Under the pieces are notes generated by a model. The model was not told the origin of the DNA. It saw only the letters and a program-made list of their open reading frames with translations, and did no database searches. A stretch of DNA of 16,969 nucleotides from Candidatus Thorarchaeota archaeon (GTDB lineage: Archaea > Asgardarchaeota > Thorarchaeia > Thorarchaeales > Thorarchaeaceae), in assembly GCA_004524445.1 (NCBI GenBank), contig SDNP01000045.1:1-16969 (forward strand). The letters are read 5' to 3'. Positions 2-16,969 of this stretch are shown here, in pieces; within the stretch, counting starts at the first letter, position 1, and each line of letters starts with the position of its first letter. The position numbers were made by a program, and so were the translations under genes.

Positions 2-745
2 GAGATGATCGAAAATCCGATTGAGGCAAAAGTCTTCACGCCCTATGGTGCACCATCAGATAATTTCATCGTCGGGACTGTTAAGGGAAGAAGCTTTGCA
101 TTCCTTGCTCGTCATGCCAGAGGGCACACAATTCCCCCACATGCTATCGACTACAGGGCAAACATTTGGGGGATGAAAGCGTTGGGCGTGAAGAGGATCA
201 TAAGCCCTGCTGCATGCGGAAGCTTACAGCCAGATAAAATCAAACTTGGGGAGTTCGTAATTGCAGACCAAATATTTGACCGAACTTTCGGGCAGCGAAA
301 AGATACATTTTTCGAAGGAGGAACTATCGCTCACCTTCCATTTGGAGAACCATTCTGTCCAGAATTGAGAAGAGTTGCCCGACAAACTGCTGATGATTTG
401 GGATTTAAGGTTCATGATGGAGGGACCTATGTCTGCATAAATGGCCCAAGATTTTCAACTTCGGCCGAATCGATGTTTTTCCACAACCAGGGCTGGGATG
501 TGATTGGGATGACAGCATATCCAGAGGCGCCGTGAGCTCGTGAAGCTGGCATTTGTTTTGTAAACATCTCCATGCCTACTGATTACGACGTCCATGCGGA
601 GGAGCATGTGACTCATGAGAAAGTTCTCGAAACTATGTCAAAGAACATCGAGAGAGTCCGCAAACTCACATTCGCAATGATTGAGAATATACCAAAAGAA
701 CCAGAATGTTCCTGCCAAACTGCCCTGAAAGGCGGACTGTTTTAG
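2..745 (+). CDS. mtnP: S-methyl-5'-thioadenosine phosphorylase (MTAP/PNP-2 family), 5'-truncated by the window edge, with in-frame TGA at 533-535 (recoded, nonsense allele or sequence error)
   Basis: Motifs TPYGxPS, FLARHARGH, DYRANIWGMK, ACGSL, DQIFDRT, PFCPELR, GTYVCINGPRFST, VIGMT-PE. After the TGA the same frame reads AREAGICFVNISMPTDYDVHAEEHVTHEKVLETMSKNIERVRKLTFAMIENIPKEPECSCQTALKGGLF to TAG 743-745, the typical MTAP C-terminus (ARE, TDYD, CxC). The N-terminal GIIGGSG segment is absent, so the true start lies upstream of the window. Confidence 0.92.
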
Positions 746-787
746 AAAAAACAAATAAGACCTGGCCCAAGTCATATCCTTGGGCCA
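746..787 (-). terminator. Hairpin plus U-rich tract, probable terminator of the acidic micropeptide gene (lies between convergent genes)
   Basis: Perfect 9-bp inverted repeat TGGCCCAAG (763-771) / CTTGGGCCA (779-787) with a 7-nt loop, followed on the minus strand by GGTCTTATTTGTTTTTT. Confidence 0.6.
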
Positions 788-843
788 ACCGTCCAATTCA
801 CTTTCTTGTGTCGGAATAACGACAAGTCTGAACGCAAGACGAC

Positions 844-942
844 TTACCAATCGTCGTCGTCATCCAAGTCTTCATCGTCATCGTCCCAATCTTCATCGTC
901 GTCCCAATCTTCATCGTCGTCCCATTCTTCGTCGAAGACCAT
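844..942 (-). CDS. 32-aa hyper-acidic Trp-repeat micropeptide MVFDEEWDDDEDWDDDEDWDDDDEDLDDDDDW (not in the ORF track)
   Basis: Translated by hand: ATG at 942-940, TAA at 846-844. SD GAGGTG sits 8 nt upstream of the ATG. Synonymous GAC/GAT variation occurs within the repeats, and there is a downstream hairpin with U tract. Confidence 0.75.
   Translation of the reverse strand: MVFDEEWDDDEDWDDDEDWDDDDEDLDDDDDW
885..923. repeat. 18-bp tandem repeat CCCAATCTTCATCGTCGT (2 exact copies plus degenerate flanking copies) encoding the WDDDED unit
   Basis: Directly visible at 885-902 and 903-920; related units at about 847-884. Confidence 0.85.
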
Positions 943-950
943 GATTTTTT

Positions 951-956
951 CACCTC
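951..956 (-). promoter_or_regulatory. Shine-Dalgarno GAGGTG for the acidic micropeptide
   Basis: CACCTC on the + strand; minus strand reads GAGGTGAAAAAATCATG. Confidence 0.65.
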
Positions 957-1235
957 AGATGCCCCCCGTCGCCTTTTTCATCTAAATATGAAGGAACGGA
1001 ACTAATGGCACAATGCACCAAGTAATTTGCTATTGAAAAGCAAATAAAATTCAAATCCCTATTAGTAGGATAATCACGTTTTATAGATTTGAAAAAAGGC
1101 ATCATAACGCTTTTTTTGTCGATATCGGTAAAATGAAGACAATTGTTAAATGTCACTCAGAACCTCTCACGAACAAGGGTTAAAACGATCTTATGGGAAC
1201 CCGTGACGCTACCAGAGATAGTGGAGGTGTGACCA

Positions 1236-2042
1236 ATGAACAATGCAAAAGGTTCGGAAGATATTGATGTTAAACCAGAAATCTCCTCTGATGCAAGATT
1301 GGTCATCCTCCCCAAGAAGGAAAAAATCAATGTAAAGCTACTGGGAGAGCAAGAAATATCCAGGGTAGGAAACGGGATTTATTTGATTCTGGAGGGGACC
1401 ACAAATATCAAAGAGCACCTCGCAGATATCTCTCACTTCAGGTTCCGCAGGGTACGAGAAATACCTCCTATCAAATCGCGAGACCCAGAGGTACGGGCGA
1501 AGAAGGTCTTCGCGATTGTATGGTACCAGTTCGCTTCACCAACAGCTGGCCAGAAAAAGAGAGTGCAGAGACTTATACATCGAGCTCCCTGCATTAGACT
1601 CAGACCGGGTGTTCTCTTATTCCCGCATCTACGCAGTAAAGACAGAGAACGGTATCTCAAGAAGAATAAAGAGCGGTCAGTTCTTGGATCGAAAGAGTTC
1701 TCTGCTGTATTGGAAGAAATGGGCGGCAATGTAGCCAGATGGACACGGCTTCAACTAGTAAATCAGGCCAGTAATGAGTTGCTCTATGCATCGCTAGAGA
1801 AAATGTCTAAATCTGAGATTGGTTCGCTTGAGGCAAAGCTCCGAACACTGAAAGAAGCAGCAGTAGAGGGGGAGGGTATTCGAAAAAAGCTGAAGGAACG
1901 TTATTCTGAGATATCCAGTATTTACAGAAATCTCAGATCCAAATATGAGGTAGTTCGTGTGGTGTGGGGTGTTGATCTCAGAAGAGAATTAAAACGGACC
2001 TATAATTTGATGCTAAGAACGAAGCATGTGATTAGTTCGTAG
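1236..2042 (+). CDS. Hypothetical basic protein with a putative ChrB_N / PaaX-central / Cas2-like ferredoxin-fold domain and C-terminal coiled coil
   Basis: 268-aa ORF with strong SD GGAGGTG at 1223-1229. The pattern FAIVWYQF...KKRVQRLI...IRLRPGVLLFP...LEEMGGNV followed by long amphipathic helices resembles ChrB N-terminal and PaaX central domains, judged by eye only. Confidence 0.6.
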   Translation: MNNAKGSEDIDVKPEISSDARLVILPKKEKINVKLLGEQEISRVGNGIYLILEGTTNIKEHLADISHFRFRRVREIPPIKSRDPEVRAKKVFAIVWYQFASPTAGQKKRVQRLIHRAPCIRLRPGVLLFPHLRSKDRERYLKKNKERSVLGSKEFSAVLEEMGGNVARWTRLQLVNQASNELLYASLEKMSKSEIGSLEAKLRTLKEAAVEGEGIRKKLKERYSEISSIYRNLRSKYEVVRVVWGVDLRRELKRTYNLMLRTKHVISS

Positions 2043-3317: not shown

Positions 3318-3851
3318 TTACTTGTTCTGTTGGAAGCTTCGCTGAATAATCCATAGGCTGTAGAGTGAGAATAGGATTACAACAGCTGCCAAGGATAGTA
3401 TAGGAGTTGCAGTCCCAGGGATTATGGACTGGGAGAAAAGAACCCAACTAATCGTATCTAATGTACCTATTATCGCTGCAACAATGACAACGATGAGATT
3501 CGTGAAACCTCCATATCTAATACGTGAAGATGTGAGTTTCCAAATTCGTAAAGATAACACGGCTGCAACGGTAGCCATAACGATAATGCCATAGTTGATA
3601 ATAAAATAGTAATTCCACTGTTGCCAAATTGGGTAGGGGGGGATAAATGCAAAACCAAACCCAATCAAAATGAGAACGAAGACCACACGCGGCCATGGGT
3701 CAGCCAGAAAATCTCCAAGGTCACCCAATAGTTCTGGACGGAGTGAATCCTCATACAGGGACATATCTCGCTCGTCTTCTTCATCAGGAAAAGAATCATC
3801 GAATTCAGCTTCGATATCATCTTCATCATGTTGGTCTTCTTCGTAGTCCAT
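3318..3851 (-). CDS. Hypothetical membrane protein (about 4 TM helices) with a very acidic N-terminal tail
   Basis: 177 aa; D/E-rich first ~35 residues, then four hydrophobic segments. GAGG SD upstream; 4 bp from the MazG-like gene, so probably co-transcribed. Confidence 0.8.
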   Translation of the reverse strand: MDYEEDQHDEDDIEAEFDDSFPDEEDERDMSLYEDSLRPELLGDLGDFLADPWPRVVFVLILIGFGFAFIPPYPIWQQWNYYFIINYGIIVMATVAAVLSLRIWKLTSSRIRYGGFTNLIVVIVAAIIGTLDTISWVLFSQSIIPGTATPILSLAAVVILFSLYSLWIIQRSFQQNK

Positions 3852-3979
3852 TTGTAATTCCTCGCTCAGACGAGTGGGCTTTCCTGAGCGGTCTGAGTTA
3901 AAATTCTTGTCATTGGTTAGTGCCGATATACTTAGCTCAGCTGAAGAAGCATTATTACCACTTCTGTCGAGATTCTGAT

Positions 3980-4576
3980 ATGGCTCAAGATTCCGAAACC
4001 CAATCCCTGCTTCAAAATGCTCAACTACTAAGGCAACGAGGAGAAACGAAGAAGGCCATAGACATTTACGAGAAAATATTAGATGTTTCTCCAGAATCTA
4101 TCATCGCGCTAAATGAATTGGGCCTTGCCAGAATTCACAATGGAGAACAAGAGCAGGCATTAGAGTTGTTTTCAAAGGCCATTGAAATCGCCCCAATGGA
4201 TTCGAGAGGGTATAGTAACATGACCGAAGCCTATCTGACTATTGGCGATTTTGAAAACGCACTAAAAGCATCAAATCGTGGTTTGGAACGGATTGAGGAT
4301 GATGCAGACCTTTGGAAGAAAAAGGCAAGGGCTCTTGAGAGTCTTATGAGAATTGACGATGCCATAGAAGCATTTCGAAGAGCTCTTGAGGTCAATTCGG
4401 AAGATCCTGAAACCTGGAAAGCACTTGCACTCTGCATGGATGCAAAAGCTAAGTGGGAAGAGGTCGGTAGAGCATATAGAATTGCAGCTAAATTACATAA
4501 GAAGCGGGGAGAAAACCAGGACGCCGAGAGCTGTTTGAGATTTGCAAAAATGGCCGAAGGTGGGCTAGAAAAATGA
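3980..4576 (+). CDS. Tetratricopeptide repeat protein
   Basis: Several TPR units (AIDIYEKILDVSPE, ALELFSKAIEIAPMD, LWKKKARALESL, AIEAFRRALEVNSED). The in-frame ATG at 3980 is preferred over the track's GTG at 3920. Confidence 0.88.
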   Translation: MAQDSETQSLLQNAQLLRQRGETKKAIDIYEKILDVSPESIIALNELGLARIHNGEQEQALELFSKAIEIAPMDSRGYSNMTEAYLTIGDFENALKASNRGLERIEDDADLWKKKARALESLMRIDDAIEAFRRALEVNSEDPETWKALALCMDAKAKWEEVGRAYRIAAKLHKKRGENQDAESCLRFAKMAEGGLEK

Positions 4577-4618: not shown

Positions 4619-6301
4619 CTATTTTTTCTTCTTATAGAAGACCGCTCCAATGATGACTGCTACTATTGCAATTGCAATGTAGACTGCATAATCGATCAGA
4701 AGCTGCATTAGAGGATCAATTGTATCAGTGGGAGTAGTTGTGGGGGATGTCGTTGGACTTGTTATTACAGACCCGATTGAATCTCGTACTCGAATGACCA
4801 TGGGTATTCCAACATGCCAATTGGTACCCACACGTATTTTTCCAACAACGGTAATATTTGTTCCATCAGCCTGAGGTGAAATCACATGGAAGTAATTCTC
4901 CGGGTCATCATCCTCAGTAAGCTCTGACTCTGGCGAATCATAGGCATTATCGGTGATGGTGTAATTATCCCAAGCATCATCGCCAATCTTGACTGCCAAC
5001 TCGACCTCATCTATGCCATCATCGTATAGCTCATGACCATAGACGGTGACATTGATGTTCGAAGAACTGGTGGGAATGTTTGGGTCCCAATAGGTATTGA
5101 CATATTCTATCTCATCAAAGTCAGCAATGCCCCAATCATAATCGAATACTTCTGAATACCATTGGGCTACATCCTCGTTCTCGATGATGACGCCAGCCTC
5201 TCGGTTATTCTCAATGCTGTTGTCGCTATAATTGATGCTGCTAATGAGTACGATTCTACCATCCACAATGATAGCCTTGTTGTGGTTTGCAGTAAACCAG
5301 CGCGTCATCTGCCAAACAATAGGAATTCCATGCTCTACAAACAACTCTGAAATCTCCTCCCAAGCATATGACCCCTCTTCGGAAATCACTCGGACTGTTA
5401 CACCCCGGTTCTTAGCCGCAAGGATGGCATCAACAATTTGCTCTACCGAACCTTCTTCATCAATATTAGCAAAATAGGGAATCTGGATGTCCAAAGTCGC
5501 CTGAGCAGAATTTATGCAGTACAGAATTCCTTGAAGACTGGTCTCAGGACTGAAGATTGGCGTCACATTCATGGGTCCACTAAACCGCCCAGGAGCGGCA
5601 AATGGTCGGGGGTAAGTTGTTCCTACTTGAGAATAGGAAAGCGGTTCGCCAGTTCCATCCTCATCTGGGTCATAATCAGTTCCACGACTCCAATCATTAT
5701 CAAAGACCATTCTGTAGTAGTTAGTGACTTGGTCATCGGTCATGGCAATACTCCACTCGCGATTTGCCTTCTTCCCCTCTTCTGGGAAGCTTGTTTTTGC
5801 CCAATTCCCAGAATGAACAATAGTGGTCTCGTTGTCAATAATGACATATTTCTGATGAGCAAATGTGAAATCGCCGCCTGCCCCACTACTGGTCCATCTT
5901 ACAGGATAACCCAATAGTGTCAGATTGTTTGCAACATAGTCGTTTGGTTCATAATAACCCAGGCTGCTCCTACCAAGCAAGAATTTCATGTCGATGCCTG
6001 GTTTAGAATCCTGTATTTCGTGGATTAAGTCTAGTATATAGGGATTGTTTATACCATATATCTCGACATAGATACTCTCTTCTGCTGATTCTAGAAAATG
6101 CCAGAGCGCATCTCTGCTACCGTCAGGAGAAACAAAAGTAGTCACATTCATATTTGTTGATATTGTGTTCCATTCAATGTCAGCGGTCACATATTTCGGT
6201 TCAAGATTATACACGCTTGCGGCCGGAACTAGCATTGTAATGGAGAATGAAAATAATAAACCCACAGCCAATAGGCTTCTGGAAGTACGGCAAATTCTCA
6301 T
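4619..6301 (-). CDS. Secreted, membrane-anchored phospholipase D-superfamily enzyme (two HKD motifs)
   Basis: N-terminal signal peptide; HQKYVIID...HSGNW...NRE and HNKAIIVD...SSINYS...NRE; beta-rich C-terminal domain, Thr/Pro linker, TM helix and KKKK tail. Confidence 0.92.
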   Translation of the reverse strand: MRICRTSRSLLAVGLLFSFSITMLVPAASVYNLEPKYVTADIEWNTISTNMNVTTFVSPDGSRDALWHFLESAEESIYVEIYGINNPYILDLIHEIQDSKPGIDMKFLLGRSSLGYYEPNDYVANNLTLLGYPVRWTSSGAGGDFTFAHQKYVIIDNETTIVHSGNWAKTSFPEEGKKANREWSIAMTDDQVTNYYRMVFDNDWSRGTDYDPDEDGTGEPLSYSQVGTTYPRPFAAPGRFSGPMNVTPIFSPETSLQGILYCINSAQATLDIQIPYFANIDEEGSVEQIVDAILAAKNRGVTVRVISEEGSYAWEEISELFVEHGIPIVWQMTRWFTANHNKAIIVDGRIVLISSINYSDNSIENNREAGVIIENEDVAQWYSEVFDYDWGIADFDEIEYVNTYWDPNIPTSSSNINVTVYGHELYDDGIDEVELAVKIGDDAWDNYTITDNAYDSPESELTEDDDPENYFHVISPQADGTNITVVGKIRVGTNWHVGIPMVIRVRDSIGSVITSPTTSPTTTPTDTIDPLMQLLIDYAVYIAIAIVAVIIGAVFYKKKK

Positions 6302-7375: not shown

Positions 7376-9208
7376 TCACCTAGGAAGAGGGTCTTCACTG
7401 TCTATCCAATGTCTCAATGAAGCTGCAGCTTTCTCAGTCATGCCTTCCACCTGCCTCAGTTCGTTGATGGAAGCCCTCCGGATTTTGTCATAACTACCGA
7501 AATATTGGAGCAGGGTATTTCTTCTCTTTGGTCCAATCCCAGGAGCATCCTCTAGTATTGAACCGGAGAATCTGCGCTCTCTGAGTTTGTGGTGGTACCG
7601 TTGTGCGAAGCGATGTGCCTCATCACGAACCTGCTGAACCAAAAAAAGGCCATCGGAATCCAAAGGGAGAAATATACCGCCAGGGGCGTTCCTTGTATAG
7701 AGAATCTCCTTATTCTTGGCAATAGCGGCAACATTGAGATATTCAAGTCCCAGTTCTTCCAATGCTTTTTGAGCAACGTTCAGCTGACCCTTGCCACCAT
7801 CGATGATAATCAAATCCGGCAATGGCATCCCTTTCTCAAGTACCCCCCGGTATCTACGATAAACAACTTCATACATCATAGCGTAGTCATCGGGAGTGGT
7901 CTTTGAGCGAATTTTGAACATTCTATATTTGCTATTGTCGGGTTCACCATTATGAAATACAACACAAGAGCCTGTTGGATCTGTCCCTTGGATATTTGCT
8001 ATATCGAATCCTTCGATGTGTAAAGGGGCACGTGATAAATCTAGATACTCCTTCAGGTTCTTGACACCTTCACTTAGAATCTCCTCGTCGCTTTCACCCA
8101 GTAGCAAGATTTTCCGAAGACTGCGGTATGCATTCTTGTTTGCCATCTCCACTAGTTCAGATGGTCTACCGCTTTTGGGATTATGCAGCTTTGTCTTGGT
8201 GTCCACGGTCTCACCAAGCCATCTCCCGATTTTTTTCATTCCAGTAATTTTAATCGGAAGGAGTATTTCCTCTGGAACTCTAGGAATTGTGAAGTAGAAC
8301 TGTTCCACAAAAGCCTGCAGCACCGATGAATCGGGAGTGTCGATATCGACTTCAAAGTAGTAGTTATCATGTCCTACCAGACGCCCGGACCGAATCAGAA
8401 GGATTTCAATCAATGCGGCTTGCTCCGTTCGAGCAAGACCAAGAACATCTTTGTCAGTTCCTTTGGGTTCCACAACCTTTTGCTTTCGCATTATAATGTC
8501 AATGTCCAATAGACGGTCTCTGAGATTGGCTGCTTTTTCATATTCAAGATTTCGAGATGCCTCTTCCATCTTCTCTCTGATGATGTCGGTTAGCTCCTCT
8601 TCTCTACCTTCAAGATAGAGGCACATTTCTTGAACAGCTTCTCTGTATTCTTCAATCGGCACTTGTTCTGAACAGGGAGCAATACATCTCCCCAGGTGGA
8701 AATCCATGCATGCTCGCTTCACATTGGTGGGGTCGCGGCACATTGCCACAGGGATAAAACGCCTCACAGTATCAAGGAACTTATCTAGACGCTTCGTGCT
8801 GCCATAGGGACCATAATACGTTGCGCCATCCTTTTCGATTTCTCGGGTGACCTCAAATGTTGGTATATCCGCATCAAGATCCACCCTTATCCAGGCATGC
8901 CGCCTATCATCCTTCAAAGCCAGGTTGTATTTCGGTTGATGCTTTCGTATTAAGGTGGCTTCTAAGAGAAGAGCCTCTCGTTCCGTATTTGTGATGATGG
9001 TTTCTAGGTCTGCTGCGTACTGCATCATATTCCAAGTCTTTCTGTCCAGCTTTTTCCGCAAGTAGGAGGGAACCCTCTTTCGCAGCTCTTTTGCCTTGCC
9101 TATATACAATATCTCGCCATCTTTGTCCTTCCAGAGATATACTCCCGGCTGCTTTGGAAGGTCTTTCACTAAGGCGGTGAGGTCAGACACTGTATCTTCA
9201 TCCATCAT
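7376..9208 (-). CDS. uvrC: Excinuclease ABC subunit C
   Basis: GIY-YIG domain (PGVYLW...ILYIGKAKELRKRV, EALLLEATLI, PKYN), 4-Cys motif, UVR domain (LEYEKAANLRD), RNase H-like domain (EGFDIA, DDYAMM, IIDGGKGQ, RDEAHRFA) and tandem HhH (PGIGPKR). Confidence 0.98.
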   Translation of the reverse strand: MMDEDTVSDLTALVKDLPKQPGVYLWKDKDGEILYIGKAKELRKRVPSYLRKKLDRKTWNMMQYAADLETIITNTEREALLLEATLIRKHQPKYNLALKDDRRHAWIRVDLDADIPTFEVTREIEKDGATYYGPYGSTKRLDKFLDTVRRFIPVAMCRDPTNVKRACMDFHLGRCIAPCSEQVPIEEYREAVQEMCLYLEGREEELTDIIREKMEEASRNLEYEKAANLRDRLLDIDIIMRKQKVVEPKGTDKDVLGLARTEQAALIEILLIRSGRLVGHDNYYFEVDIDTPDSSVLQAFVEQFYFTIPRVPEEILLPIKITGMKKIGRWLGETVDTKTKLHNPKSGRPSELVEMANKNAYRSLRKILLLGESDEEILSEGVKNLKEYLDLSRAPLHIEGFDIANIQGTDPTGSCVVFHNGEPDNSKYRMFKIRSKTTPDDYAMMYEVVYRRYRGVLEKGMPLPDLIIIDGGKGQLNVAQKALEELGLEYLNVAAIAKNKEILYTRNAPGGIFLPLDSDGLFLVQQVRDEAHRFAQRYHHKLRERRFSGSILEDAPGIGPKRRNTLLQYFGSYDKIRRASINELRQVEGMTEKAAASLRHWIDSEDPLPR

Positions 9209-9262
9209 AGGTTGCTATTACTTTTTCACGACTAGTGTAAATCAGGGCTTTGGTATGAGTGC

Positions 9263-12118
9263 CTACTCCAAAGATGCATAGATGGCATCCTCTCTATAGA
9301 TGATTTTTCGCAGATGGTTGCCCGTGTATGAGTTCCATACTTCACAAATTTCCTCAGGAGTGCCTGTTGAAATAACTTCCCCGCCACCATCTCCGCCTTC
9401 AGGTCCTAAGTCTATAATCCAGTCTGCTGTCTTGATAACTTCGAGATTATGCTCGATCATGACGATAGTATTCCCCGCGTCAGTAAGCCGTTTTAGAACC
9501 CTCAATAACACGTGAACATCGGAGGCTGACAGACCTGTTGTCGGCTCGTCCAGCAAATAGAGAGTATTCCCTGTGCTTCTTCGGCTTAACTCAGACGCCA
9601 ACTTCATTCTCTGGGCTTCTCCACCACTAAGGGTGGTGGCTGGTTGCCCAAGCTGTAAATAGCCAAGACCAACGTCTACCAGGGTCTGTAGCTTGTCCTT
9701 GATTTTCGGAATGTCATAGAAGAACTCCAGGGCTTCATCTATTGTCATTGATAGGACGTCATTAATGTTCTTGCCTTTGTATTCTACCTCGAGGGTCTCT
9801 CTGTCATAGCGCTGTCCTTCACAGACATCACACGTCATGAAGACATCTGACATAAAATGCATTTCTACCTGAATGACACCGCTTCCCTTACACTTAGAGC
9901 ATCGTCCTTCTCGCGTATTGAAGCTGAACCTACCCTTCTCATAGCCCCTTGCCTTTGCCTCAGGCATCTTTGCAAAGAGTCTCCTAATGTAGCCAAAGGT
10001 CTTCGTGTAGGTGGCAGGGTTTGAGCGAGGTGTTCTGCCGATAGGCGACTGGTCGACGAGTACCAATCTGTCGATGTTGTCGTAACCGGTGATATCTTCA
10101 TGCGCACCAGGACGTGCACTTGCATCATTCAAGATTTTTGCCAGAGCCTTGTAGAGAGTCTCATGAATGAGTGTGCTCTTTCCAGATCCTGACACGCCGG
10201 TCACACAGATGAATCGGCCCAGCGGGAATGATACATCAATATTCTTCAGATTGTGCTGTCTTGCACCTTTGATAGTGATTTCTTTCCCATTGCCATTTCT
10301 CCGATTCTTAGGAATGGGAATTTGCTCAGCCCCTGCAAGATAGCGAGCTGTAAGAGATTTCGGATTGTTCAATACCTCTTCGGGGGGGCCTTCAGCGACA
10401 ACTTCTCCGCCGTACCTTCCAGCCTGAGGACCCAGGTCGATAATATGGTCGGCTGAATAGATTGTGTCTCTATCATGCTCTATGACCAAGACCGTATTTC
10501 CCAGACTTCTCAGTTCTCGGAATGTGTCCAAAAGCCTATTCAGGTCACGAGGATGCAATCCAATGCTAGGTTCATCTAGGCAATAGAGAACACCAGTTAA
10601 TGCAGAACCAATCTGAGTGGCCAGTCGTATCCGCTGACTTTCACCGCCGGAGAGAGTCATGCTGAGTCTATCGAGATTCAGATATTCCAACCCGACAGCA
10701 ACAAGAAAACGTAAACGTGAGGTTATTTCTTTCAGGACCAGTTCAGCTATTTTCAAGTCCCTATCGCTCAACTCAATATTGTCAAAAAACTTGTAGGCTT
10801 GCTCAATCGTCATGGAATTGACTTCGTCGATCGGCTTACCTCCAACTGTCACAGCTAGACTCTGTGCTTTCAGTTTCCGCCCGTTGCACCCCTCGCACGT
10901 TACTTTTCGCGAGATTTTGTTAGCAATATGTTGGGACCAACGCTGGTACCATTGCTTTTCACTGCTCTTACCTTTGTCAAAGATGCCTTCCAACCATGGA
11001 ATAAGACCATTCCATTTCCTCTTAATCTCCCATTTAGAGTCAGATTTCTCAGAAATGTAAGTTAGTGTTAAGTTGGGTTTCCCCCACAGAAAGACATCCT
11101 TCTGATTCTCAGTCATATCTTTCCAGTGGGTATCGAGAGTGAATCCGAATCGCTCTCCGAGGACCTCTATTCTCCGCATGAACCAGTTCCTCTTGGCTCT
11201 GACTTGCTTTAGAATGTCAGTTACGGTCATTTCCTCGTCGGAAACAATCAAATCCACATCGATGGACATCGTAACGCCTAGTCCATTACAAGTAGGACAT
11301 GCGCCGCTAGGTCTGTTGTACGAGAATGCCTTTGGATCCAATTTTGCATACTGAATGCCACACTTGGGACACATGAGTTGTTCGGCAAAGACCAAGTCCG
11401 CTTGTCCCGGTCGTGAAACAATGGCTTTTCCATTACCCATCTCCAAGGCTGTTTCTAGTGAGCCAACAAGGCGTTCTCTCGTTGAGTGGCTCACATCAAC
11501 TCTATCAACAACAACATCGACATCATGCTTTTTGCGTCCGTCAATATCCACATCATCGATCTCGGTTATCCTATCGTCTACTCGAACTCTTACAAATCCC
11601 TTTTCGATTAGACTATGCAGGGTCTCCTCATGCTTCCCAGTTTCTTCTTCTATTACTGGGGCGAGGACAAAGATACGCTGCCCTCCATTTTCATTTAGAA
11701 GTAATCTCGCTGCGGATTGAGCTGTGAGTTGTTCCATTGGCTCATTGCATTCGACACAATGGGGAATGCCAATATTCGCATAGAGGAGCCGCAAGTAGTC
11801 ATGAATCTCTGTACTGGTTCCAACGGTGCTCCTCGGGTTCTTTGTTCTTCCCTTCTGCTCGATTGAAATTGCAGGTGGTAGACCAGTTATGCTTTCTACT
11901 TTTGGCTTATCCAATCGGCCTAGGAAACGTCTGGCATAGGATGAGAGAGACTCTACATATCGTCTCTGTCCCTCAGCAAACACAGTATCGAACACAAGTG
12001 TGCTCTTGCCGGAACCCGATGGCCCGGTAATTACGACGAGGCGGTCGCGGGGAATATTCAATGATATTTTCTTTAGATTATGTTCCTCTGCCTTCTTTAC
12101 GCTGATATAACCGGTCAT
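9263..12118 (-). CDS. uvrA: Excinuclease ABC subunit A, second (more divergent) paralog
   Basis: Two ABC ATPase modules (GPSGSGKST, LSGGESQR, DEPSIGLH; GVSGSGKST, LSGGEAQR, DEPTTGL), AEGQRRYVESLS, PIGRTPRSNPATY, zinc-binding CxxC pairs, UvrB-binding and insertion domains present. Confidence 0.97.
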   Translation of the reverse strand: MTGYISVKKAEEHNLKKISLNIPRDRLVVITGPSGSGKSTLVFDTVFAEGQRRYVESLSSYARRFLGRLDKPKVESITGLPPAISIEQKGRTKNPRSTVGTSTEIHDYLRLLYANIGIPHCVECNEPMEQLTAQSAARLLLNENGGQRIFVLAPVIEEETGKHEETLHSLIEKGFVRVRVDDRITEIDDVDIDGRKKHDVDVVVDRVDVSHSTRERLVGSLETALEMGNGKAIVSRPGQADLVFAEQLMCPKCGIQYAKLDPKAFSYNRPSGACPTCNGLGVTMSIDVDLIVSDEEMTVTDILKQVRAKRNWFMRRIEVLGERFGFTLDTHWKDMTENQKDVFLWGKPNLTLTYISEKSDSKWEIKRKWNGLIPWLEGIFDKGKSSEKQWYQRWSQHIANKISRKVTCEGCNGRKLKAQSLAVTVGGKPIDEVNSMTIEQAYKFFDNIELSDRDLKIAELVLKEITSRLRFLVAVGLEYLNLDRLSMTLSGGESQRIRLATQIGSALTGVLYCLDEPSIGLHPRDLNRLLDTFRELRSLGNTVLVIEHDRDTIYSADHIIDLGPQAGRYGGEVVAEGPPEEVLNNPKSLTARYLAGAEQIPIPKNRRNGNGKEITIKGARQHNLKNIDVSFPLGRFICVTGVSGSGKSTLIHETLYKALAKILNDASARPGAHEDITGYDNIDRLVLVDQSPIGRTPRSNPATYTKTFGYIRRLFAKMPEAKARGYEKGRFSFNTREGRCSKCKGSGVIQVEMHFMSDVFMTCDVCEGQRYDRETLEVEYKGKNINDVLSMTIDEALEFFYDIPKIKDKLQTLVDVGLGYLQLGQPATTLSGGEAQRMKLASELSRRSTGNTLYLLDEPTTGLSASDVHVLLRVLKRLTDAGNTIVMIEHNLEVIKTADWIIDLGPEGGDGGGEVISTGTPEEICEVWNSYTGNHLRKIIYREDAIYASLE

Positions 12119-15018
12119 TTGCTATCACTCCCCTCATTATCAGCTCTGAAAGCCGGAAACATTTCTTTGAGATAGTATCCTGTGTAAGAATCCTCTGAGG
12201 ACGCGATGAGTTCAGGTGAACCTTCTGCCACAATGTGTCCTCCTTCTTCGCCACCCTCTGGTCCGAGGTCGATAATCCAGTCTGCGGTCTTAACGACATC
12301 CAGCTGGTGTTCTATGACCAAGACTGAGTTTCCGAGATCAACTAATCGGTGAAGTACTTCTAGCAGCTTCTTGATGTCAGCAAAATGAAGCCCGGTAGTT
12401 GGTTCATCAAGCATAATCAGAGTTTGCCCGGTTGCTGGTCGGGATAGGAATTTGCTCAACTTAATCCGCTGTGCCTCACCACCACTCAGTGTCGTGGCGG
12501 GTTGACCGAGTTTGATATAACCCATTCCAACATCACAGAGAGTCTTCAGTCTGCGATAGATAGGCTCGATCTCTTCAAAGAAGTTGACGGCTTCATCGAT
12601 GCGCATTTCAAGAACGTCAGCAATATTCTTTCCTTTGTAGCGCACCTGCAGAGTATCTCGGTCGTATCTCCGCCCCTTACAGTCAGTACACTTTACTTCA
12701 ACAGGAGGGAGGAATTGCATCTCAATTGTTTCAACTCCCGCACCCTTACATTTCTCACATCGGCCGCTCTTAGTATTGAAACTGAAGCGTCCCTTCTTAT
12801 AGCCGCGAATCTTCGCCTCGGGAAGACTGGCATATAGCTCCCGTATCGGAGTAAAGAGACCCACATAAGTCGCCGGATTTGATCGAGGAGTTCGGCCAAT
12901 TGGGCTCTGGTCGATGACTATAACTTTGTCGAGTTGTTCCGAGCCAACAATCCCATCGTGGTCGCCAGGCTTTGCCTCTGCGTTATGGAACTCTCTTGCA
13001 AGAGCCCTCTGTAAGGTTTCCACAACCAGGCTTGATTTGCCGCTCCCGCTCACACCAGTCACTGCGATAAATAGACCTAGTGGAATCTTGACATCAATAT
13101 TCTTCAGATTATTGTGCCTGCAGCCCCTCATCTCGAGTATACGACCATTTGGCTCTCGTCGCTCATCGGGAACTGGTATCTGTTCATCTCCGCGGAGATA
13201 CTGACCAGTGATAGACTCTTTGGATGCAAGGACATCATCCAATGTTCCTGAGACAACAACCTCGCCGCCTTCAGCGCCAGCACCTGGTCCTAAGTCAACT
13301 ATATGGTCAGCAAACCTGATAGTTTCCTCGTCATGCTCAACAATCAGTATTGTATTTTCCAGGTCTCTAAGTCGCTTCAGCGAATTCAATAGGCGCTTGT
13401 TGTCACGTGAATGAAGGCCTATACTGGGTTCATCACACACGTATGTCACACCAACAAGATTCGAGCCAATCTGACTGGCAAGCCGTATTCTCTGAGCCTC
13501 ACCGCCTGCCAACGAGGGAGCAGGTCGATCCAGTGTCAGATACTCCAAACCAACATCCTTGAGAAAACCTATTCTGCTTTCTAATTCATTCAGAATTGGC
13601 TCTGCCACAGGTTTGAATCTGTCCTCTGGTTCGGTTGATTTGAGAAATTCATCCAGTTGAGTGATCGACATGGAGTTGACTTCAACAATAGACCGACCAC
13701 CGTATTTCACAGCCTGTGAAACGGGCTTCAGTTTTCCACCATTGCATTCAGGACAGGTCTGTTCAGCCATGAACTCTTCCAGTTGCCGGCGTCTGTAATC
13801 TGACTTTGTCTGTCTATAGACTCTTTTCGCCCGGGACACAAATCCCTCGAATGGCCTATTGAATGTGCCTTTCCATTGCACTGAGGAATCAGGATTCTCA
13901 TTGTTCCAATGCAGCTCATACTTCTCCTCGGTTCCGAACAGGATGACTTGCTTCTGGAGAGCTGTGAGTTCCTTCCAGGGCGCATCCAAAGTGAAACCGT
14001 ACTGATCCGCAACCAGTTTGAAAATCCTTCGCTTCAGCAGCCACTTATCTGATTTTATAGCGCCATCCTTCAGAGGCATGTCAGGGTCTTCAATGAACAA
14101 ATCTGGATCAAATTCCCGTACGACACCAATCCCAGTACATCTGGAACATGCACCCTGAGGTGTATTCCATGAGAATATTCTTGGCTCCATCTCTGGGAGT
14201 GATATTCCACAATCAACACAGGCGAACTGTTCTGAGAGAGTTAAGTCACGCTCATCAGTAATTATCGTTACAACGCCCTCGGCCATTTCCAATGCGATTT
14301 CTATGCCTTCAGAGATTCTACCGCGAGATGACATGTCAACCTTCAAACGGTCAATGACAACCTCTATGGTATGTTCGAAGTATCGATCAAGGGACATGCC
14401 CTCTTCAATTTCAACGATTTCTCCATCCACACGCGCTCGGATAAAGCCCTTCCCAAGCAACTCCGAGAATTCCTTGCGGTATTCTCCTTTGCGCCCTCGA
14501 ACAATGGGAGCCAAGATTACAATGCGAGTGTACTCAGGAATTTCCAGAACTCTGTCTACGATTTGCTGTGCTGTCTGAGGCTCAATCCTCTTTCCACATT
14601 GAGGACAATGAGGAACGCCAACCCGTGCATAGAGTAGTCTAAGGAAATCGTATATTTCTGTGATTGTACCAACAGTGCTTCGAGGGTTGTTACTTACACT
14701 CTTCTGGTCGATAGAGATAGAGGGTGAGAGACCCGACATGTAGTCAACATTGGGCTTTTCTAGCATGCCAAGAAACTGCCTGGCGTAGGGAGAGAGGCTC
14801 TCCACAAACCGTCTCTGTCCTTCTGCAAAAATCGTGTCAAACGCTAAGCTGGATTTTCCACTTCCGCTGACCCCAGTAATTACCGTCATCTTATTCTTTG
14901 GAATCTCAACCGAGATTGACTTGAGGTTGTGTTCAGCAGCTCCAATAACGACTATAGACTTGGGACCATTGTGTTCAGCACCTTTGTCAGCGGTATCAGA
15001 AGTCGAAAGCGCCTTCAT
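12115..15018 (-). CDS. uvrA: Excinuclease ABC subunit A, first paralog
   Basis: GVSGSGKSSLAFDT, AEGQRRFVESLS, canonical UvrB-binding domain (LAPIVRGRKGEY...GFIRARVDG), second Walker A, PIGRTPRSNPATY, LSGGEAQR, DEPTTGLH, zinc-binding CxxC pairs. Confidence 0.98.
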   Translation of the reverse strand: MKALSTSDTADKGAEHNGPKSIVVIGAAEHNLKSISVEIPKNKMTVITGVSGSGKSSLAFDTIFAEGQRRFVESLSPYARQFLGMLEKPNVDYMSGLSPSISIDQKSVSNNPRSTVGTITEIYDFLRLLYARVGVPHCPQCGKRIEPQTAQQIVDRVLEIPEYTRIVILAPIVRGRKGEYRKEFSELLGKGFIRARVDGEIVEIEEGMSLDRYFEHTIEVVIDRLKVDMSSRGRISEGIEIALEMAEGVVTIITDERDLTLSEQFACVDCGISLPEMEPRIFSWNTPQGACSRCTGIGVVREFDPDLFIEDPDMPLKDGAIKSDKWLLKRRIFKLVADQYGFTLDAPWKELTALQKQVILFGTEEKYELHWNNENPDSSVQWKGTFNRPFEGFVSRAKRVYRQTKSDYRRRQLEEFMAEQTCPECNGGKLKPVSQAVKYGGRSIVEVNSMSITQLDEFLKSTEPEDRFKPVAEPILNELESRIGFLKDVGLEYLTLDRPAPSLAGGEAQRIRLASQIGSNLVGVTYVCDEPSIGLHSRDNKRLLNSLKRLRDLENTILIVEHDEETIRFADHIVDLGPGAGAEGGEVVVSGTLDDVLASKESITGQYLRGDEQIPVPDERREPNGRILEMRGCRHNNLKNIDVKIPLGLFIAVTGVSGSGKSSLVVETLQRALAREFHNAEAKPGDHDGIVGSEQLDKVIVIDQSPIGRTPRSNPATYVGLFTPIRELYASLPEAKIRGYKKGRFSFNTKSGRCEKCKGAGVETIEMQFLPPVEVKCTDCKGRRYDRDTLQVRYKGKNIADVLEMRIDEAVNFFEEIEPIYRRLKTLCDVGMGYIKLGQPATTLSGGEAQRIKLSKFLSRPATGQTLIMLDEPTTGLHFADIKKLLEVLHRLVDLGNSVLVIEHQLDVVKTADWIIDLGPEGGEEGGHIVAEGSPELIASSEDSYTGYYLKEMFPAFRADNEGSDSK

Positions 15019-16969
15019 TTTTGGAAGTCCTCTATTTGCTTTCGTAGCCCTGCAATCTTGTCGCGCAGGGCAGCTGCCTTCTCGAACTCAAGGTTACGAG
15101 CTGACTCTTTCATCTGTTCTTCAAGTTCGAGTATGTAGTCCGTCAGTTCATCTACCTCGACGGGATCATAATCGGTAACTTTCGTTTGCTTCTTAGTTAG
15201 CTTGACCGGCATTGATTGTGCGATGTCTTTGATCTCCTTCTTGATACTCTGTGGCGTCACATTCTGTTCTTCATTGTATTCTATCTGATATCTGCGTCTT
15301 CGATTCGTTTCGTCTATTGCAGACTGCATGGCGGAGGACACATGATCTGCATAGAGAAGCACACGACCATCTATGTTCCGTGCTGCTCTACCCATAGTCT
15401 GAATGAGTGCCCAGTCTGTTCGTAAGAAGCCTTCTTTGTCAGCATCTAGAATTGCAACTAATCCCACCTCGGGAAGGTCCAGGCCCTCACGAAGAAGGTT
15501 GATGCCAACGAGCACATCGAACTTACCCTGACGGAGCTCTCTGATAATCTGGATTCTCTCCACCGTACCTATGTCGGAGTGGAGATATCGAGCCATCTCT
15601 CCAGCTTCAATAAGATACTCTGTTAGCATCTCAGCCGTCTTTTTCGTGAGCGTTGTGACAAGCACTCGGTGGCCTTGACTAACCGTCTTGTTAATTTCGG
15701 CAATCAGGCTGTCAACTTGGTTCTCGATTGGCTTCACTGTAATCTCTGGGTCCACCAGCCCAGTAGGTCGCAGAAGCTGCTCAACAATCTGGGTACTCAC
15801 CTTTCTCTCATATTTGCCCGGTGTTGCACTAGTGAAGATGACATGCCGCATGTAATCTTCGAATTCTTCAAACTTCATCGGCCGATTATCAAAGGCAGAG
15901 GGGAGTCTGAATCCGTAGTCAATCAGGTTTTGCTTTCTGGAACGGTCTCCATGATACATTCCGCCGATTTGAGGAACGGTCATATGAGACTCATCGATGA
16001 TCATCAGGAAGTCATCAGAGAAGTAGTCTAAGAGGGTATAGGGCTTCTGACCCTCTGACCGCCCATCGATATGGCGAGAGTAATTCTCAATCCCCTGACA
16101 ATGACCAGTCTCTCGCAACATCTCCGTATCATAGAGCGTTCGTCTACGCAATCTGTCAGCCTCGACAAGCTTGCCTTGTTTCTTCAGTTTCTCAACACGC
16201 TCTTCCATTTCCTGTTCTATGGGATCTAGTGCCGCCATCACCTTCTCATATCGAGCCATGTGATGTCGAGCCGGATATAGCTCAAACCAGTGCTCGTCGG
16301 ATAGCCGTTTCGATGAGATAGAATCGATGATAGACAACCGTTCAATGATGTTTCCATCAAGCTCTATGCGCACCCTATTTCTTGATGCAGCAGGTTGGAC
16401 TTCAATCACGTCGCCTCGAACGCGGAAGACGCCCGGTTCCACTTCCATATCGTTTCTATCATACTGCATCTCTACCAGTCGCTCGAGCAAAGTCCTACGG
16501 TCAATCTCTCTGCCAACTTCAAGAAACATCCTGAAGTGATCGTATTCCTCTGGGTTTCCGATTCCGTAGATACATGACACTGACGCTACAACTAGCACAT
16601 CGCTTCTGGACCGAAGAGCATGCGTTGTGGAGTGGCGGAGTCGCTCAATCTCAGCGTTGATGTCAGCCTCCTTTTCGATGTACATATCCTTACTCGGGAC
16701 ATATGCCTCTGGTTGAAACCAGTCATAATATGAGACGTAGTACTCTACAGCGGAATCTGGGAAGAATTGCTTGTATTCAGAAGCTAATTGAGCAGCCAAA
16801 GTCTTATTGTGCGAGATAACCAGCGTTGGTCGATTGTATTTCTCAATCACATTAGCCATCGTGAACGTCTTTCCGGACCCGGTGACTCCGAGCAAAGTCT
16901 GAAAACGATGTCCATCTTCGAGACCCTGCGCTAGTTTTTTGATTGCCTGTGGTTGGTCGCCAGTTGGCT
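15015..16969 (-). CDS. uvrB: Excinuclease ABC subunit B, 5'-truncated by the window edge
   Basis: The frame is open upstream of the track's TTG and reads PTGDQPQAIKKL...FQTLLGVTGSGKT. Also HNKTLAAQL, beta-hairpin, IDESH, SATP, RPTGLVDP, GINLLREGLDLPEV, GRAARN and C-terminal UVR (LEFEKAAALRD). Confidence 0.98.
   Translation of the reverse strand, partial: PTGDQPQAIKKLAQGLEDGHRFQTLLGVTGSGKTFTMANVIEKYNRPTLVISHNKTLAAQLASEYKQFFPDSAVEYYVSYYDWFQPEAYVPSKDMYIEKEADINAEIERLRHSTTHALRSRSDVLVVASVSCIYGIGNPEEYDHFRMFLEVGREIDRRTLLERLVEMQYDRNDMEVEPGVFRVRGDVIEVQPAASRNRVRIELDGNIIERLSIIDSISSKRLSDEHWFELYPARHHMARYEKVMAALDPIEQEMEERVEKLKKQGKLVEADRLRRRTLYDTEMLRETGHCQGIENYSRHIDGRSEGQKPYTLLDYFSDDFLMIIDESHMTVPQIGGMYHGDRSRKQNLIDYGFRLPSAFDNRPMKFEEFEDYMRHVIFTSATPGKYERKVSTQIVEQLLRPTGLVDPEITVKPIENQVDSLIAEINKTVSQGHRVLVTTLTKKTAEMLTEYLIEAGEMARYLHSDIGTVERIQIIRELRQGKFDVLVGINLLREGLDLPEVGLVAILDADKEGFLRTDWALIQTMGRAARNIDGRVLLYADHVSSAMQSAIDETNRRRRYQIEYNEEQNVTPQSIKKEIKDIAQSMPVKLTKKQTKVTDYDPVEVDELTDYILELEEQMKESARNLEFEKAAALRDKIAGLRKQIEDFQK

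Follow-up and report, generated by a model that had tools for sequence, protein, structure and literature searches.

The microprotein gene and its surroundings

The window analysed here, 16,969 nucleotides of DNA from a Candidatus Thorarchaeota archaeon, is one entire contig of a MAG that is about 90% complete. An ORF of 32 codons on its minus strand encodes a very acidic peptide, and the gene for a strongly basic protein of 268 residues is located divergently to it. The features of this part of the window are as follows:

844..942, minus strand: microprotein gene, 32 codons, ATG at 940-942, stop codon TAA at 844-846
951..956, minus strand: Shine-Dalgarno (SD) sequence GAGGTG, 8 nt 5' of the microprotein ATG
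979..992, minus strand: candidate TATA-like archaeal promoter box TTCATATTTAGATG, 37-50 nt 5' of the ATG
744..788, minus strand: terminator-like element, with a 10-bp hairpin at 762-788 and a T-rich tract at about 744-761
943..1235: AT-rich divergent intergenic spacer of 293 bp, separating the microprotein and 268-aa genes
1236..2042, plus strand: divergent partner gene, 268 aa, strongly basic (56 Lys/Arg versus 32 Asp/Glu)

Translation of the ORF gave a peptide with 24 Asp/Glu residues, no Lys, Arg or His and a net charge of about -24, in agreement with the acidic, Trp-periodic 32-residue peptide described in an earlier reading of the DNA without database searches (the sequence-only reading). 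The initial M-V-F is followed by repeats of five to six Asp/Glu residues and a Trp or Leu (W7, W13, W19, L26 and W32), i.e. one such residue for every 6-7 positions, with Trp as the last residue. Residues 4-6 and 8-12, close behind the start codon, are all Asp/Glu. At the DNA level the ORF consists of 4.7 copies of an 18-nt tandem unit encoding DDDEDW, and in this GAN-rich DNA other reading frames are open too. The GC content of the spacer was 0.38-0.39, compared to 0.446 genome-wide. The fold of the hairpin and T-tract region, which separates the microprotein gene from the convergent mtnP, was stronger than that of all 200 shuffled sequences (z -3.5). The strong SD, the AT-rich upstream region and the downstream hairpin with its U-tract, which the sequence-only reading had taken for expression signals, were all confirmed.

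A genome-wide scan of the 2.79-Mb genome detected no second ORF of this kind. Because the ORF is the only one in the genome, and because it recurs in related genomes with its signals kept, the ORF and its signals far exceed what can be expected by chance. Judged from the sequence and its conservation, ORF 844-942 is a genuine, unannotated, stand-alone gene of this Thorarchaeota archaeon. It had been proposed to be such a gene, lying below the thresholds of gene callers, and the frame, signals and substitution bias conserved in its relatives (described below) bear this out. Genes this small and of such low complexity escape both gene callers and profile searches.

Several other genes in the window were noted. 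The mtnP gene (2-745, plus strand) has an in-frame TGA at codon 533-535, where the congener has TTG (Leu). The TGA falls in a fully conserved PEAP-L-AREAG motif, and both frame and conservation carry on beyond it; an error in the assembly, a nonsense mutation of very recent origin or read-through at this codon could each explain it. A 177-aa protein (3318-3851, minus strand) appears to have a very acidic N-terminus of about 40 residues and putative transmembrane stretches. It matched no family, and is kept in the synteny block in several genera. A 560-aa protein (4619-6301, minus strand) contains two PLD-like domains together with an apparent N-terminal signal or anchor, a Thr/Pro-rich linker and an apparent C-terminal hydrophobic anchor, an arrangement which suggests a surface enzyme of the phospholipase D family. 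An excision-repair operon, uvrB - uvrA - uvrA - uvrC, occupies positions 7376-16895 of the minus strand and includes tandem full-length UvrA paralogues of 951 and 967 aa.

Conservation of the gene and its polycationic neighbours

When 201 Asgard genomes were scanned with a profile built from the peptide alignment, not even the query genome was recovered, for which the composition correction of the HMM is to blame. Since profile HMMs were useless on such low-complexity peptides, DNA patterns were used for searching. The search for orthologues was anchored on the 268-aa neighbour; 20 related genomes together with 26 public contigs supplied homologues of it. An acidic, Trp-periodic ORF of 25-32 codons was present divergently 5' of the 268-aa gene in 22 of the 22 loci with sufficient flank. 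The sequence-only reading had suggested looking downstream of mtnP in relatives for a conserved start, SD and frame with a variable number of repeats, and this is the pattern that was observed: the ATG, the SD, the frame and a stop codon after the last aromatic residue were kept in more than 40 Thorarchaeota loci, and the repeat number varied. Of 24 orthologous loci, about 21 carry GAGGTG or GAGGT 5-8 nt ahead of the start codon. The orthologues are 25-32 residues long, with three to five (D/E)n-W repeats, nothing past the final Trp and net charges from -16 to -24; their consensus is M-x-F-D-D-E-D-x-W-x-D6-W-E-D6-W-stop. In an alignment of 19 orthologues the W19 column was invariant and the other spaced aromatic positions recurred in most sequences. 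Differences in length corresponded to whole codons or whole repeats, and codon position 3 took 92 of the 132 differences (70%) found between 12 close orthologue pairs.

The window genome (G000) and its congener (G001) were aligned over 481 columns, 86% of which were identical. The SD and the ORF were nearly unchanged, whereas the spacer was clearly more diverged save for short blocks. The TTCATATTTAGATG block was kept between the two genomes in the midst of diverged spacer, and a promoter-like TTAGACATCTTTTACTC box is kept in other genera at an equal distance from the ATG. The terminator stem was also kept in the congener, with a single change of A-U to G-U.

No Pfam or NCBIfam family matched the peptides (hmmscan of five against Pfam-A, E up to 10), none of ten such microproteins was present in a collection of 15 billion proteins, and no description was found in the literature on archaeal acidic Trp small proteins, Asgard DSS1/Sem1 and Asgard microproteins. 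The peptide belongs to an undescribed archaeal microprotein family, as had been supposed from its sequence; among low-complexity acidic peptides of this type homology is not provable, and profile searches are blind to them. Asgard archaea are the archaea most closely related to eukaryotes, and a microprotein conserved across their lineages with fixed signals and partners is a real addition to their proteome.

In several Thorarchaeota genera a second acidic Trp micro-ORF was seen on the far side of the basic gene, which is therefore bracketed by two of them. The loci concerned are:

L076, 1420-1524 and 2619-2723: acidic Trp micro-ORFs
L004, 2298-2633: second acidic Trp micro-ORFs
L014, 2259-2528: second acidic Trp micro-ORFs
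L016, 1168-1410: second acidic Trp micro-ORFs

Acidic Trp paralogues also occur at unrelated loci (L081 and L082), and the window genome has a single acidic Trp micro-ORF.

The 268-aa protein has a net charge of +24 in the window genome. Its family is small and confined to archaea-like contigs, and all of about 100 representatives, drawn from 1.84 billion proteins, were polycationic, with net charges from +8 to +41. None of these representatives had acidic tracts or was a fusion of the basic protein with an acidic Trp tail. The AlphaFold model (pLDDT 85) consists of an N-terminal beta domain, a ferredoxin domain at about 92-174 and a three-helix bundle at 177-268. The beta-alpha-beta-beta-alpha-beta order read from the predicted model at 92-174 would fit a Cas2/VapD fold. 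The top Foldseek match was PaaX (8a39, E 5e-3), Cas2 chains were matched at E 0.3, and PF20803 (PaaX_M) matched one of 18 family members at 1e-4, which is a weak signal; the C-terminal bundle gave generic matches only. Model and matches point to a Cas2/PaaX_M-like core. PaaX-type regulators are composed of an N-terminal winged helix, PaaX_M and PaaX_C; the 268-aa protein combines a mostly-beta N-terminus, in which no winged-helix family was detected, with a weak PaaX_M signal. Searches of NCBIfam and PADLOC returned nothing for the 268-aa gene or the microprotein gene. Structure alignment and a PDB sequence search with the 268-aa neighbour returned just generic three-helix-bundle and coiled-coil matches, and a Pfam match to Med9 (E 0.007, short of the cut-off) was dismissed as coiled-coil noise.

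The acidic micro-ORF and the 268-aa gene are linked in three Asgard families and in three gene orders. The two are divergent in all 22 testable loci of family f1 and linked downstream, on the same strand, in families f12 and f16; among metagenomic relatives the linkage is convergent or downstream, as it is for two of the four distant family members that were sampled. The pair is single-copy per genome and sits in a synteny block that is stable across many genera, in some of which the local block reads mtnP - peptide - 268-aa gene - CN hydrolase - MazG - membrane protein - TPR. Genera g3, g4, g11 and g16 have neither the 268-aa gene nor the peptide pattern. Two genomes of genus g7 (G007 and G364) have an acidic micro-ORF at the mtnP/CN-hydrolase locus and are missing the 268-aa gene, so the 268-aa protein cannot be the only partner of the peptide. 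The net charge of the neighbour did not covary with that of the peptide (rho -0.26, p 0.26). Complex prediction for the 268-aa protein and the peptide gave a score of 0.00, which is no verdict either way on binding.

Three families, with at least 20 genomes between them, have a micro-ORF encoding polylysine (19-31 codons, MAKKKPAKK...KKKK type, net charge about +9 to +13) beside the acidic ORF on the same strand, in a shuffled order. Most f1 genera have it about 70 nt 3' of the acidic ORF; in f12 it is 5' of that ORF, and in f16 it comes behind two acidic ORFs. The copy of the window genome is on a separate contig:

C28, 22027-22092 (= L083, 1528-1593), minus strand in L083: polylysine micro-ORF of the window genome, 21 codons, MAKDKKPAK...KK, unlinked

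This gene has a GAGGTGA SD and a GC-rich terminal hairpin, and its copy in the congener differs by one in-frame indel of 3 nt (one codon), with the SD intact. The peptide and the two polycations, i.e. the 268-aa protein and the polylysine microprotein, form an Asgard module which is conserved by linkage. In f12, a 22-codon Arg/Lys micro-ORF resembling eL41 was also seen about 700 nt 3' of the acidic micro-ORF (L055, 2235-2303, plus strand).

Metagenome DNA was scanned with the pattern W-(D/E)6-W-stop. The scan returned 80 loci, 39 of which were micro-ORFs, mostly of a Glu/Trp type. Five of the metagenome micro-ORFs adjoin homologues of the 268-aa protein, and 11 of the 39, all Glu/Trp micro-ORFs, are located 70-400 nt 5' of ABCE1 on the same strand. 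A zinc-ribbon gene of about 90 aa lies between micro-ORF and ABCE1 in three of these 11 loci. The product of the ~90-aa gene (L158, L159 and L131) is conserved and begins with a zinc ribbon (FCPKCG...C..C), followed by a basic middle and an acidic tail. ABCE1 of the window genome has no acidic Trp ORF nearby, and ABCE1 linkage is absent in Thorarchaeota. Small K/R-rich frames over the Glu-rich metagenome ORFs were discounted, since runs of GAA/GAG produce such frames as artefacts when read out of frame.

Possible roles of the acidic peptide

A multivalent docking peptide or polyanion mimic is the best general reading of the role of the peptide. Since its gene has stayed next to that of a very basic protein and, in relatives, to a polylysine micro-gene, the peptide most likely binds basic partners, and because the two Asgard partners have extreme positive charge in common, a free polyanion is the simplest reading. 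More precisely, the peptide may be a disordered polyanion which binds or neutralises polycationic partners, in the manner of prothymosin-alpha with H1 or of DSS1. We put the probability of this reading at roughly 0.45. The free peptide would then act as a soluble counter-polyelectrolyte or nucleic-acid mimic. Charge would drive its binding to lysine/arginine-rich partners, and the spaced and C-terminal Trp residues could serve as hydrophobic or cation-pi anchors. Bound partners would be held soluble, kept off nucleic acid or controlled in their availability. Oppositely charged disordered proteins can form very tight complexes (PMC7661507, PMC11971343). Several observations speak against the reading: the charges of peptide and neighbour do not covary, acidic micro-ORFs persist in the two g7 genomes that lack the 268-aa gene, the polylysine gene of the window genome is unlinked, and in other archaea the Glu/Trp forms adjoin ABCE1 and no basic protein. 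Starting from a gene whose reality, conservation and linkage are shown by the comparisons above, we infer the binding by the peptide and the direction in which it would regulate its partners.

N-terminal runs of Asp/Glu destabilise translating ribosomes, an effect counteracted by bulky residues (bioRxiv 10.1101/2021.02.02.429294; PMC9718836). The peptide may thus owe its translatability to its bulky M-x-F start and periodic Trp, which probably also aid translation of the acidic run.

A wider proposal is that poly-Asp/Glu-Trp and polylysine microproteins are a charge-paired class, new to science and present in Asgard and other archaea, forming a disordered polyelectrolyte complex or condensate, which would tune the Cas2/PaaX_M-like protein and, elsewhere, ABCE1, and which could be a prokaryotic forerunner or analogue of DSS1-like hubs. 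We regard this wider proposal as doubtful.

The ribosome-destabilising property of acidic runs suggests an explanation in which the act of translation, and not the peptide, is what matters. The ORF would be a leader or sensor in which the stochastic, Asp/Glu-triggered falling apart of ribosomes (intrinsic ribosome destabilisation), as in MgtL, regulates a downstream gene or reports ribosome or Mg2+ status. Consecutive acidic residues right behind the start codon are a known trigger (PMC9718836; PMC12673854). Two arrangements described above are consistent with such a leader, namely the 11 Glu/Trp micro-ORFs 70-400 nt 5' of ABCE1, a ribosome-splitting ATPase encoded on the same strand, and the polylysine micro-ORF about 70 nt 3' of the acidic ORF in many Thorarchaeota. 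The ORF in the window, however, precedes the conserved hairpin and T-tract and then the convergent mtnP, and so has no downstream gene to regulate. The order of the partner genes also varies between families (divergent, downstream or convergent). Furthermore, the terminal Trp and spaced aromatics are kept up to the stop codon, which suggests that the full-length product matters, and such bulky residues suppress the destabilisation that a leader would need. The explanation fits the ABCE1-linked relatives and not the window locus, and we consider it unlikely. If translation of these ORFs does sense ribosome stability, sensing by acidic leaders would be extended to archaea and tied to ABCE1. Both this explanation and the polyanion reading yield simple testable peptides of 20-32 residues.

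The predicted Cas2/PaaX_M-like core of the 268-aa protein raises the question of a toxin-antitoxin pair, in which the 268-aa protein would be a nuclease toxin of the VapD/Cas2 type, neutralised by the acidic peptide as antitoxin. The tiny acidic neighbour with a putative promoter of its own would suit this arrangement, as would the existence of peptide-only genomes, none having clearly been seen with the basic gene alone. Toxin-antitoxin pairs of the VapD/VapX type are patchily distributed, multi-copy and mobile, whereas the single-copy state of the present pair, its vertical inheritance and its stable synteny across many genera indicate that it is not. No nuclease motif was identified in the 268-aa protein, PADLOC returned no match, the family is tiny and confined to archaea-like contigs, and an equivalent type of peptide is found beside ABCE1 without the basic protein. 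A toxin-antitoxin function is accordingly given a low probability.

Equally improbable is mimicry of the ribosomal stalk tail, in which the acidic tract and hydrophobic end of the peptide would fill the pocket for the aP1 C-terminus in ABCE1 or translational GTPases. Stalk tails bind ABCE1, the Glu/Trp forms of the peptide adjoin ABCE1, and aP1 of the window genome ends in a poly-Glu tract followed by the hydrophobic tail FTAGLGSLFG. But Thorarchaeota, the window genome included, lack the ABCE1 linkage, and the peptide terminates in Trp and has no LxxLF-type tail.

It is very improbable that the ORF is just a tandem repeat at the DNA or RNA level, open by accident and not coding for protein, or that its product is a plain Mg2+/Ca2+ buffer. 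The 18-nt tandem repeat and the GAN-rich DNA, open in other frames, could be read in the first way, and polycarboxylates do bind divalent cations. Yet the third-position substitution bias is specific to the peptide frame, SD and ATG are kept at a fixed distance, the stop is always directly behind the last aromatic codon, and the gene partnerships are conserved.

Hardly any credence can be given to a eukaryote-like acidic-Trp motif, of the kind of the WASP/WAVE A region or the kinesin W-acidic motif, that would dock onto an actin-related or TPR protein. There is a resemblance of motif only; no actin or Arp gene was linked in any locus examined, and the neighbours that have been conserved are ABCE1 and proteins of polycationic character. 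Nothing was found to tie the peptide to the Arp2/3, actin, kinesin-type TPR or histone docking that the sequence-only reading had considered. The TPR gene to which it had drawn attention is real (3920-4576) and lies about 3 kb off in seven loci of several genera, but its link to the peptide did not hold up: it moves with the whole synteny block, which is restricted to some genera, and g5-type genomes do not have it close to the module, while the TPR gene near the module in f16 is just 26% identical and a generic TPR match.

Comparison with known systems

In the WASP/WAVE A region and the kinesin W-acidic motifs, the acidic Trp element is part of a larger protein and acts with Arp2/3 or a KLC-type TPR, whereas the peptide described here is a free product of 32 aa. 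The VapD/VapX and other Cas2-fold toxin-antitoxin systems are similar in that a basic protein, here with a predicted Cas2-like ferredoxin fold, is encoded beside a very small acidic protein; the 268-aa protein differs in having a further domain at the N-terminus as well as a three-helix bundle, as in PaaX. MgtL-type leaders share with the window ORF the very short reading frame and the Asp/Glu residues straight behind the start codon. They have a regulated downstream gene, a feature which the window ORF is without and which the ABCE1-linked metagenomic relatives share. Compared to MgtL, the window ORF is much longer, contains no Pro, carries counteracting bulky residues and has apparently been selected to its last residue.

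In DSS1, which is a small disordered protein, Trp residues in Asp/Glu runs anchor in basic grooves of several unrelated partners, and DSS1 is a DNA mimic too. The peptide resembles DSS1/Sem1 in having conserved Trp within the Asp/Glu runs of a small acidic protein. DSS1/Sem1 has about 70-90 residues, two acidic Trp sites and a C-terminal helix, whereas the peptide is a third as long, helix-less and built from repeats of variable number, and no PCI or BRCA2-type protein is linked to it. None of five peptides matched PF05160 (DSS1/Sem1) at E up to 10, a search in which composition filters may mask weak similarity. Membership of the DSS1 family, as judged from the sequences, fails on profile, length and architecture.

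The polyanion reading finds its closest functional counterpart in prothymosin-alpha and H1. The peptide and prothymosin-alpha are without sequence relationship, and the comparison is functional only: prothymosin-alpha has about 110 aa and no aromatics, whereas the archaeal peptide has 25-32 aa with spaced Trp and a C-terminal Trp, and its putative partners are a KKPAKK-type polylysine microprotein and a folded +24 protein instead of histone H1. Should the peptide work as a polyanionic chaperone or antagonist of basic proteins that bind nucleic acid, it would represent a very early and minimal form of what is regarded as a characteristic strategy of the eukaryotic nucleus, known from prothymosin-alpha, DSS1 and acidic histone chaperones. 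In the prothymosin-alpha/H1 pair and in the archaeal module alike, a very acidic and presumably disordered polypeptide is paired with lysine-rich polycations; the net charges of peptide and partners are extreme and opposite, and here the genes are paired by conserved adjacency. Prothymosin-alpha and H1 bind by charge without folding, and by analogy the same mode of binding would be expected for the peptide.
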